From the IMG/VR virus record IMGVR_UViG_2839610755_000024: DNA of 64,000 bases. One strand, given 5' to 3'. A program made the position numbers. This document shows positions 12,001 to 15,000 of the stretch, in pieces. The DNA is from a virus. Its lineage: Duplodnaviria; Heunggongvirae; Uroviricota; Caudoviricetes. Every line of letters begins with the position of its first letter. The first letter of the stretch is position 1.

Positions 12001-15000
12001 CTGCTGGCCATAACTGTTAATTGCCCTGACTGTCAGGGTGTATTCCCCGAGCGGCAGACCACTGGAACGATGCTCTGTATCCGCAGTGATGGCGGTGGTC
12101 ACCAGACGGCTGCCTTCTCCGCTTCCGCTGGTCAGTCGCAGACTGAAGCGCACCCCCTTCACCACCCGCGGCGTGTCCCATTTCGCCTGTGCCAGATACT
12201 GGCTGTCAGCTGCACTCACCTCCACCGTCAGGTGCTGCACTGCCGGAGGGATGACGCTGTTCAGGGTGCCGCTCTGGTCGCCGTCAAAGTGCGCCCCGTT
12301 ATCCACGATGGCTTCTTTTTCCGGTACGTGCTGCACTGCCGTGATGGCAAAGGTGCCGTCCGTGTTTTCCCGGATGGAGACACAGCGGAACAGGCGACGA
12401 CGCAGTGACGGCAGGGAGAGCCCCCACACACCGTATGTCTCCACGCCATCCGGCAGGGTGCTGACCTGTATCCGGTCCGGCGCGGGGTGTGCAGTGATGG
12501 CCACGCTCACCGGCTTACCGCTGCCGTTAATCAGGTTCACCGTGGCGGCACCGGTCTCCGGCAGGGTCACCTCACGGTCCAGTGTCAGGGTGCGGCTGGC
12601 GGCATCGATGGACAGGACACGTCCGCCGGTCATGGTCCCGGCATAGTCGTTATCACAGATTTCAATAATGTCACCGGGTGTGTGACGCAGCCCCTGTGAC
12701 CCGAGCGTGAAATCCACCGTCTGCGTTTCCAGCAGTCCGGTCTTTATCACCCACAGCCCGGCACGGTGGGCCTGACCGCGACTGGTGCAACCGAACGCAT
12801 CCATCTTCAGCAGGTTGCGCCCGTAGCGCAGTATGGCTTCCGGGTCTTCCACCAGTTCCGTGGAGGTCTGCCAGCCGTTCTGCGGGTCGGTGTAATTCAC
12901 CTCCACCGCCGTGTGGCGGTCCTTCAGGGCGCTGAAGCTGTAGCGAAACCCCACGCCGTTATCATCCACCACCACATCACTGTTGGTGTACGGCCACACC
13001 ACATCCGACGGACTGTCCTGAACGAACGTCAGCGTCTGGCCGTTCCATACCGGCATACAGCGCATCGCCGAGCAGAAATCACTGAGAACGTCCCACGCCT
13101 TACGCTGTTGTGACAGGTACGCATTAAAGGTCATCCGCGGCTCTGTGCCCCCGAAACCATCAGGGACCATCTGGTCGCAGTACTGCGCAATGGCATACAG
13201 CGCCCACTTGTCCACATCCGCCGCCCCCAGGCGTTTTCCCATGCCGTAGCGCGGGTGAGTCAGCATGTCCCACAGGCACCAGGCCGGGTTGTTGCTGTAT
13301 GCCGGTTTCAGGCTGCCGTCCCAGATGCCGCTGTACGTGCGTTTTTCCGGGTCATAGTTTGACGGCACCTGGATGATGCGACCGCGGATATGGTAGTTCA
13401 CCGTCATCTGCTGGCCACCAAACTGCTCCGCATCCACCTGCAGCCCCACAATCGCCGTGTTCGGGTAGCACTGTTTCACATCGATGATTTCGGTGTATGA
13501 CGACCAGAGCGTCTTATTCTGCAGCTGGTCCGAGGTGCTGTCCGCCGTCTCCCGGACCATCCGGATGTTAAAAGGACGGGGAGGCAGATTATCCAGAATC
13601 ACCGACGCCAGAAACTGCGAGGTGGTCTTGCCGTTAATGGTGACATCCTTTTCCGTCACCCAGTTACCGTTACGCTGCAACTGAATCAGCAGTCGGACAG
13701 AAGAGGGATTACGGTCGCCCTTTGAGGTGGTCTCCAACAGTGACTGCACCCCGAAGGTGACCCGCAGGCGGTCAATGTTCGCGGACGTAATGGTGCGCGT
13801 CACCGGCTTTGCCTTCGTCACTTCCACGCCCAGTGCGGTTTCCGCCCCGGAGGACTCAAAGCCTTCAGGTGGTGTCTGCTCCTGCTCCCCGGCGCGCCAG
13901 ACCGCGGTCACACCATGTATCACAGGATTACCGTCCGTGTCCGTCAGCGGGGTTTTGTTCACCAGGATACTCTGCAGCCCCTTCACCGGACCTTCAATCG
14001 GCCCTTCACCAATGGCATCAATCACGCTCATCATCTGCGTGGACTTAAGATTGTCCTTTGCCTCAACCGGCGTGTGTGCCCTGCCGCCACCTTTACCCAC
14101 TCGGTCCCCCTCTCCTGTCTGATGTCTGATGTCTGATGTCTGAATCTGTTTATGCCCCAAAAACGACAGGCACCCCGGAGGGTGCCTGTGTCATGACGGA
14201 ATAAAATTTCTGAATTTCTTCACATTTTCTGTACGCCCCCGTGGCAGATATCATTCCCGGGCGTTACAGTTTTTTCGGGCCAATAAAAACAAAACTCCCT
14301 GTGGTTAATCTTCATTTTCTGTTCCCGCAGCCTTCGGTCACTGCGGGATTTTTTCGCTTTTATGCCTGCCGCCCGATAACCACCACCTTCCCGTCACCGC
14401 CTTCATCACGGGTACTGATGTCCTGGGAGATTCGCCGTGAGCCAACCAGCATTTCACCGTAAGGCACCGCCATCGGGTTCCCCTGAGCAATCATGTTGTC
14501 CAGTGAGGAAAAGTACGTGTTCTGTCTGCCGTTATCCGTTGCGCGGTAATCCGGTGTTTTTGCCTTCGGTGCCAGCATCTGGGCCACACCGCCCAGTATC
14601 ATGCTGGCCCCCAGTGAAAACAGCATCGTGGTGGCAGAAAAACCACCGGCTGCCAGGGCTGAACCCCATAACGCCATTGATGCCCCGGCCGTGAAGAACG
14701 ACCCCACGATGGCCGCCGCCCCCAGCACAATCTGCAGTCCACCCTTTCCGGCCCCGGCCAGTCGCGGCACAATGTGGATGACCGTTCCCTCACCCAGCTG
14801 TTCGTGAAGACGGGCGTACACCGCCTCCGGTGCCGTGTCATCACCGGCAATACGTATCTGGTACCAGCCTTCGTTCATCTGACGGCGGAATCCCGGCATC
14901 TGCATCGACAGGGCACGGATGGCTTCCGCTGCCGTGTTCACATACAGGCTGAGGCGGCGGCCAAATCGTTGTAAATCCCCGTGAAGGCAGATACGTGCCA

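Follow-up and report, generated by a model that had tools for sequence, protein, structure and literature searches.

The 64,000-nt stretch of Caudoviricetes DNA analyzed here (IMG/VR record IMGVR_UViG_2839610755_000024; hereafter the window, meaning the stretch at its full length) includes the tail operon of a lambdoid prophage of enterohaemorrhagic Escherichia coli (EHEC), and our subject is the 259-bp spacer between its tail genes I and J (14101–14359), which is probably a compact small RNA (sRNA) cassette. The operon lies on the minus strand, with the I open reading frame (ORF) at 15040–14360 and a long J ORF running down from 14160. In the order in which the tail operon is read, the TAA of I is followed by five bases, an A-run, a CCCGCAG-N10-CTGCGGG hairpin, ~60 nt of A/U-rich sequence and a variable stretch; toward J come a conserved block of ~39 nt, a 10-bp hairpin, CGTTTTT, GGGGCATAAACAGAT, (TCAGACA)x4, GGAGAGGGGG, ACCGA and the GTG start (Table 1). 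The T-runs of the two hairpins lie on opposite strands, that of the I-proximal hairpin on the plus strand, antisense to the operon, and that of the J-proximal hairpin on the minus strand, in the sense direction. An earlier note made from the sequence alone had delimited the gap correctly and had recognized the plus-strand CCGCAG...CTGCGG hairpin with its T-run; the gap runs between the J GTG at 14100 and the I TAA at 14362–14360, and the hairpin occupies 14323–14348, with T6 at 14349–14354. The palindrome that it placed at ~14165–14192 is a real hairpin, with a stem of 10 bp rather than 11 because the outermost G/G is unpaired. In lambda, contrary to what the note assumed, I and J do not abut but are separated by a spacer of 60 bp (15445–15504). 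The note was silent on the minus-strand orientation of the tail genes, which makes an RNA from the plus strand antisense to the operon, and on the opposite-strand polarity of the other hairpin. Many O157:H7 chromosomes carry the gap with 100% identity, as do the Stx2c-type phages 2851, 1717 and YYZ-2008; for 2851 and 1717 the identity extends over 14090–14370. No gap feature is annotated in any public record that we examined, and Rfam gives no match in 14050–14420, even at E<=10.

Table 1. Features of the I–J spacer and its borders, in window coordinates
Feature	Position	Strand	Basis or remark
Gene I stop codon TAA	14362-14360	-	Sequence; tail assembly protein in identical public records
Small RNA gene, predicted allele of the EcOnc22/23/24 family, ~94 nt	14261-14354	+	Covariance model match; antisense to tail operon
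Predicted intrinsic terminator of the sRNA, stem TCCCGCAG/CTGCGGGA, 10-nt loop, T6	14323-14354	+	Perfect inverted repeat
Putative sigma-70 promoter of the sRNA	14225-14254	+	-10 TATCAT 14249-14254; predicted start ~14261
Most conserved gap block, 39 nt	14191-14229		Near-invariant among 23 distinct short gaps aligned
Predicted sense intrinsic terminator upstream of J	14189-14159	-	Terminator scan; inverted repeat
(TCAGACA)x4 variable-number tandem repeat (VNTR) in untranslated J leader	14116-14143	-	Tandem Repeats Finder (TRF)
J Shine-Dalgarno region GGAGAGGGGG	14115-14106	-	Sequence
J start codon GTG	14100-14098	-	PGAP start in identical record; aligned across all gap variants

The plus-strand half of this gap corresponds to RNAs already catalogued in E. 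coli O157 Sakai. Hfq cross-linking and analysis of cDNA (CRAC) gave homologous peaks, listed as such, for EcOnc22 in prophage Sp15 (2902714–2902774, +), EcOnc23 in Sp14 (2676643–2676704, +) and EcOnc24 in Sp11 (2166694–2166753, +), all in the coordinates of that paper, and EcOnc22 was seen by northern blot as an RNA of ~85 nt that is destabilized in a delta-hfq strain (Tree et al. 2014, PMC4104026, with peaks in Table S2). In hybrids recovered by cross-linking to RNase E, followed by ligation and by sequencing of the hybrids (CLASH), the half assigned to EcOnc22/23/24 is GCCTGAAAAATAACTCCATAACGTTAATCTTCA, at paper coordinate 2902717 (Waters et al., PMC5286369). In the current record, NC_002695.2, the I–J gap measures 240 nt in each of Sp15, Sp14 and Sp11, whose tail genes run along the minus strand, and the EcOnc peaks fall inside these gaps. 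The CLASH string occurs on the plus strand of the Sp15 gap (locus L003, 1153–1185), which sets the record offset at exactly +135 and makes the RNA antisense to the operon; AsxR and AgvB, located with their Rfam models, give paper-to-record offsets of +135 to +142. The EcOnc coordinates of both papers refer to an older record and sit 135–142 nt below the current one. Used without correction, the Table S2 coordinates would assign the Hfq peak to the heptamers and sense hairpin, a placement that the offset rules out. Once corrected, the CRAC peak covers L003 1150–1210, the body of the plus-strand RNA, which runs into a CCCGCAG/CTGCGGG-A-T7 terminator (L003 1195–1227) ending 5 nt from the I stop codon, and both the CRAC peak and the CLASH reads end in this homologous terminator hairpin. 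EcOnc22–24 therefore lie at the position and on the strand of the predicted window sRNA, in the I–J gaps of Sp15, Sp14 and Sp11, and for the Sakai allele the literature has established the RNA, its strand, its position and its dependence on Hfq.

Membership of the window copy in this family was assessed with a covariance model (R1) of 11 alleles, from which the window type and its near relatives were excluded. The model matches 14261–14355 on the plus strand over its full length (73.1 bits, E~2e-11), the sole significant match in the 64 kb, with the second-best match at E = 0.17. Its structure was specified by hand and supplemented with inventories of stems and loops, instead of being taken from RNAalifold, which gave no useful consensus on a MAFFT alignment of 13 alleles in which long-loop alleles were misaligned. 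A scan of all genome contigs with the pattern A5-TCCCGCAG-N8-18-CTGCGGG was too generic to be of use, matching ordinary terminators of unrelated phyla. The window allele is identical to EcOnc22 at 72 of 98 positions (73%), and the two share their I–J location, strand relative to the tail genes, terminator stem, T-run and -10 position; they differ in that the window copy has the weaker promoter and 4 rather than 2 heptamers in its J leader. On this homology, the I–J gap is predicted to carry a variant copy of a catalogued, functionally uncharacterized Hfq-binding sRNA gene. The earlier note's suggestion that the gap could encode a small RNA is thereby supported, the plus-strand hairpin and T-run corresponding to the terminator of an EcOnc22–24 family gene.

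In its predicted fold the window RNA has an A/U-rich unstructured body, with the terminator as its only stable element, as is typical of Hfq-dependent sRNAs; its overall fold stability is about that of shuffled sequences (z = -0.07), and the body holds an AAU-AAA-AAC-AAA run of the ARN type. The 5' GCGUUA, the U-run, AACUCC, UUAAUCUUCAU and the terminator are conserved across alleles, those of EcOnc22–24 and the window included, whereas the segment between them varies, with the central CCAUAACGUU of EcOnc22 replaced by CCCUGUGGUU in the window allele. By our own reading of the published hybrid sequence, CCAUAACGUU is the part complementary to yjbJ in the CLASH hybrid, so the targets of the window allele would differ from those of EcOnc22; targets are probably allele-specific more generally, given that the central segment differs between alleles. 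If the window RNA acts by pairing, its candidate seed region would include CUCCCUGUGG.

The arms of the sRNA terminator (14323–14330 and 14341–14348) pair over 8 bp when the terminal T-A is counted, and the T6 stops 5 nt short of the I stop codon. Across 168 related instances, the 7-bp core stem is invariant, the T-run has 6–9 residues and at least 20 loops of 9–16 nt occur. All 49 distinct variants have a -10-like hexamer (TATAAT, AATAAT, GATAAT or TATCAT) at one and the same place, and several of them read TTCACA-16-TATAAT and match the consensus at 11 of 12 positions. The -35 candidates of the window are weak, being TTTTCT at 14225–14230 (18-nt spacer) or TTCTGT at 14227–14232 (16-nt spacer). 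The predicted RNA, measured to the end of the T-run, is 90–102 nt long across variants, with 91 nt for the EcOnc22 allele and 94 nt for that of the window. Upstream of the sRNA -35 lies the block that is best conserved in the gap; viewed on the sense strand, it directly precedes the sense terminator. Within it, a CRP-like TCTGA-N6-TCACA at 14209–14224, centered ~44.5 nt upstream of the predicted sRNA start, fits the consensus at 9 of 10 positions and is invariant across gap variants; such matches number 3 in the window against 2.4 expected, which is statistically unremarkable. An imperfect palindrome (CCCGTGGCAGATATC/GATATCATTCCCGGG, 14238–14261, 73% complementary) overlies the -10 in the window sRNA allele only.

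Gaps from the I stop to the J start were compared in 83 sequences, of which 79 came from IMG/VR loci, three from Sakai loci and one from the window, and yielded 38 distinct gaps in size classes of 235–259, 342–344 and 851–852 nt. The I-proximal ~100 nt are common to all three classes, and the short class conserves the A-run, the 7-bp stem and the sense hairpin. On its antisense strand, the 851-nt class encodes a 175-aa Cu,Zn superoxide dismutase (Pfam Sod_Cu, E = 3.9e-32); sodC is annotated between I and J in Sakai Sp4 and Sp10, and these are the sodC-F genes of the literature. As the gap alternates among the sRNA, sodC and other inserts, the I–J junction is a cargo site. The window cassette also resembles a moron in being extra, variable DNA at a junction that is short in lambda (259 vs 60 nt) and in having a predicted terminator of its own; the promoter is convincing in other alleles but weak in that of the window, which agrees with the consensus at 8 of 12 positions. 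Of 5426 complete E. coli genomes, 829 (~15%) hold related versions of the gap, at a median of 5 places per genome, and so do 149 phage records, all of them Escherichia or Stx phages. In Sakai Sp9 (locus L208, NC_002695.2 1794585–1794771), a deletion has removed K, I and the cassette's I-proximal half, and the remnant begins in the middle of the sRNA body and retains the promoter, the conserved block and the sense terminator before J.

The J-proximal hairpin is a predicted intrinsic terminator of the tail-gene strand. Its stem, ACAGGCACCC/GGGTGCCTGT (14166–14175 and 14180–14189), has 10 pairs, 7 of them G-C, with a 4-nt loop (TCCG on the minus strand), and is followed by CG and T5 at 14163–14159. 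Pairing is preserved in 96.7% of cells, with 9 distinct versions of the stem, compared with 34–49% when the partner is slid. One compensatory pair, from C-G to U-A through U-G, was found, and the covariation score was equalled in 48 of 500 shuffles, so that its statistical support is modest. The gaps of ~343 nt have an unrelated hairpin, ACCCCGGTATC...GATACCGGGGT, with a T-tract at the same place, and the sodC class has no sense terminator. Antitermination by Q is established behavior, and from it we infer a role for this element in insulating J from RNA polymerase that Q has not modified. A 348-aa ORF at 15729–16775 (-), between the tail genes upstream of K and I, is annotated as an antirepressor (Ant) in identical records; this ant gene is a further insertion within the tail operon and a possible source of nonantiterminated sense transcription toward J.

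Between the sense terminator and J lies the heptamer array, which the earlier note had described as TGTCTGA x4 at exactly the position where TRF reports it (period 7, 4.0 copies, 100% match, score 56). No comparable array arose in 100 shuffles of the window. Repeat number, which the note had proposed comparing across isolates, does vary: among 114 IMG/VR copies with this leader type, searched with a pattern able to detect 1 to 5 units only, 104 (91%) carry 2 units, with 3 and 4 units in 5 copies each, and one identical backbone was seen with both 2 and 3. The array is thus a genuine VNTR. Sakai's three EcOnc22-type gaps have 2 heptamers each, heptamers occur in only one of several J-leader types, and the array was not found in the literature searched. 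Because the changes in repeat length are of 7 and 14 nt, which are not multiples of 3, the array must be untranslated, and the J start is accordingly the GTG at 14100. In the phage 2851 record (FM180578), J is instead given a TTG start equivalent to window position 14160, reading through the terminator T-run and the heptamers, and this start is very unlikely to be right. Pairing of the sRNA with its own J leader or heptamers was also considered and rejected, RNAduplex energies against dinucleotide shuffles giving z from -1.65 to +1.36, and +0.43 for the window.

Taken together, these observations lead us to regard the I–J spacer, with reasonable though not full confidence, as a compact sRNA cassette, a moron without a protein gene, set ahead of an ordinary J leader. 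In this model, plus-strand transcription would start near 14261 from the sigma-70 promoter and end at the CCCGCAG/CTGCGGG hairpin and U6 at 14354, yielding an RNA of ~94 nt with a mostly single-stranded A/U-rich body, a terminator hairpin and a U-tail. This RNA would most likely be an Hfq-dependent base-pairing regulator that the prophage makes in the lysogen. On the other strand, RNA polymerase lacking Q modification would stop at the 14189–14166 hairpin and its U5 before reaching J, and Q-antiterminated late transcription would pass; (TCAGACA)n would be a slippage-prone repeat in the untranslated J leader. The homology of the window copy, both terminators as sequence elements, the positionally conserved -10 and the repeat polymorphism are direct observations, and the steps of expression and action described here are what they suggest for the window allele.

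Several findings weigh against this interpretation. The window promoter is the weakest of the family, and a generic promoter scan returns nothing at its site. A good promoter is also no guarantee of a detected Hfq-bound RNA: the 341-nt I–J gap of Sakai Sp12 (locus L209, NC_002695.2 2217392–2217732) holds an sRNA cassette with the consensus TTCACA-16-TATAAT, yet Tree et al. (2014, Table S2) list no EcOnc peak at that site. The sRNA terminator stem never varies and so offers no covariation, and the 91 nt predicted for EcOnc22 are slightly more than the northern estimate. For the published alleles, the CLASH partners, yjbJ (ECs5028) and ECs5349, are represented by 1–2 reads each (PMC5286369), and a 2021 review lists the targets of EcOnc22–24 as unknown. 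The window allele itself is present in none of the 7 Sakai prophages checked and its specific strings are in no RNase E-CLASH read.

Other readings of the locus must be set against the cassette model. An RNA made here might act in cis, pairing with the I–J segment of the late mRNA or colliding head-on with late transcription, with RNase III cleavage or interference setting the level of J, the host-range tail tip protein, relative to I. The geometry suits such a role, as the sRNA gene sits wholly between the cistrons and converges on the late operon, complementarity is by nature perfect over ~94 nt, and promoter strength differs among alleles in a way that could tune the effect. The family RNA was, however, detected in uninduced lysogens, in which the late operon is silent, and sodC-type gaps keep the I-proximal ~100 nt without the same promoter context, so we consider a cis-antisense function somewhat unlikely; it would in any case be compatible with action in trans. 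The earlier note also raised the idea of an attenuator, and of heptamer copy number affecting the initiation of J translation. The array does stand directly 5' of the J Shine-Dalgarno, its copy number varies (2, 3 or 4), in one case on an identical backbone, and C/A-rich unstructured leaders can enhance translation. Yet two units are by far the commonest number, J leaders of other types lack the heptamer altogether, the leader fold is not unusual against shuffles (z = -0.13) and leaves the repeats mostly unpaired, and the gap's own sRNA pairs with the leader no better than shuffles do. The attenuator finds no backing in an Rfam cis-regulatory match (none at E<=10), in a conserved leader ORF or leader peptide (none), or in the fold of the leader. 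Tuning of J by the repeats is therefore a reading that we think quite unlikely, and the note's interpretation as a whole is partly supported.

The sense strand could also be the source of an RNA, if the 39-nt block and the sense terminator were the 3' end of a regulatory RNA ending at ~14159 and cut from the I 3' untranslated region or the late transcript. In its favor, the block is conserved better than anything else in the gap, has many A-R-N triplets and precedes a terminator with a U-tail. In the published peak set, only peaks antisense to coding regions or >100 nt away from them were retained (Tree et al. 2014, PMC4104026). Such a filter would have dropped a sense-strand peak lying ~60 nt from J, whose omission from Table S2 therefore does not count against this RNA. 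On the negative side, neither the promoter scan nor inspection of the alignment revealed a recognizable promoter on the sense strand, no published peak or read supports it, and the block could just as well represent the upstream portion of the antisense promoter; we hold it to be improbable. The same low standing goes to the possibility that the gap is an inert remnant of a decayed sodC-type insertion, left with orphan terminators. The I-proximal ~100 nt shared with the 851-nt gaps and the weak promoter of the window allele would fit decay. On the other hand, the homologous Sakai RNA is made and Hfq-bound, the -10 position, terminator stem and T-run have persisted in 49 divergent variants even as the loops drifted, and the cassette is widespread and repeated in complete E. 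coli genomes. Least credible of all is a small protein from the sense strand. A 31-aa ORF beginning MKINHREF (14315–14220) and a 34-aa ORF (14254–14150) both exist in the window, and the Sp15 version has a better Shine-Dalgarno before ATGAAGATT. Neither has a Pfam match, though, the ATG of the 31-aa ORF becomes ACG or is deleted in several variants, and 1–2-nt indels break the frame; with neither start codon nor frame conserved, the sense-strand region is not protein-coding.

Placing the proposed cassette among known systems brings out both its kinship and its distinctness. AgvB and AsxR (RF02702 and RF02703) are likewise short, prophage-borne, Hfq-associated EHEC RNAs oriented opposite to the late operon, with a conserved 3' terminator part and bodies that vary within the family. 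They differ from the window RNA in their site, downstream of PR' by the stx/moron site, in their size of 51–60 nt and in having no sequence relationship to it. The two Rfam models have no match in the gap at E<=10, whereas in Sakai control loci they do recover AsxR and AgvB, and this result together with the site excludes the identity of the window RNA with AgvB. Nor is the placement of AgvB/AsxR, convergent with an STnc100-type RNA, found here, the STnc100 of the window lying ~25 kb away at 39635–39846. HnrS (EcOnc10/11/12; PMC13502914) is another multicopy Hfq-associated sRNA from the late region of EHEC lambdoid prophages, but it has a different locus (~5 kb from PR' in Sp10 by Table S2 coordinates), a length of 66 nt and hha as its target; the window RNA is set apart from it by locus, without direct sequence comparison. 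In O157 prophages, sodC-F1 and sodC-F2 morons (PMC2569942) occupy the same gap in the same antisense orientation and share its I-proximal ~100 nt, including the CCCGCAG terminator, but carry the gene for the 175-aa superoxide dismutase, with its own promoter and hairpin, and have no conserved block, sense terminator or heptamers. In lambda (NC_001416 15445–15504), the spacer has a sense hairpin, ACCGCC-TGCG-GGCGGT followed by TTTGTCATTT, and thus a T-rich tract just upstream of the J ribosome-binding site, as in the window; it differs in its 60-nt length and in having neither an antisense sRNA cassette nor repeats. No homology is detectable between the lambda spacer and the J-proximal half of the gap, with 237 of 1000 shuffles scoring as well, so the lambda hairpin is only a positional analogue.

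Elsewhere in the window, the STnc100 (EcOnc27-type) sRNA copy at 39635–39846 is on the minus strand and has no AsxR or AgvB beside it at the Rfam gathering score, unlike its counterparts in Sakai Sp5, Sp10 and Sp17. An isrK-like RNA (45286–45362, -) directly adjoins a C4 antisense RNA match (45177–45260); from its place downstream of Q, it is probably the PR'-tR' short transcript, of the StxS type. Three tRNA genes lie at 41257–41497. Three identical matches to the ALIL pseudoknot, a frameshift signal of the IS3 family (30761–30877, 54907–55023 and 63167–63283), imply that at least 3 insertion sequence copies interrupt the region. Two longer tandem repeats are also present, one of 162 nt x 3.7 copies (25060–25652, 97% match) and one of 30 nt x 3.1 copies (44839–44932, 92% match).

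EHEC genomes harbor many near-identical lambdoid prophages, and the prophage sRNAs AgvB, AsxR, StxS and HnrS retune host metabolism and virulence. The cassette described here is usually present in several copies and alleles per genome, yet it has neither an Rfam family nor a known target. Precise placement of the EcOnc22–24 signals gives these RNAs a gene model, in the I–J gap and antisense to the tail genes, with promoter and terminator defined; it comes with the demonstration that the gap alternates between an sRNA, sodC and other inserts, and it puts right a J start that certain phage records misannotate. Were the central segment to serve as a seed specific to each allele, a polylysogen would possess a set of related regulators that differ in their targets. 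A bolder view, which we offer as speculation and think doubtful, is that the I–J junction is a second, so far unrecognized hot spot for regulatory-RNA cargo in lambdoid prophages, after the PR'-proximal site, in which a fixed scaffold carries an exchangeable central seed, the RNA also gates J and the heptamers serve as a heritable dial on J translation. Should it be true, the scaffold would consist of the 5' GCGUUA-U run, UUAAUCUUCAU and the invariant terminator, and each copy would reprogram a different host mRNA or sRNA.

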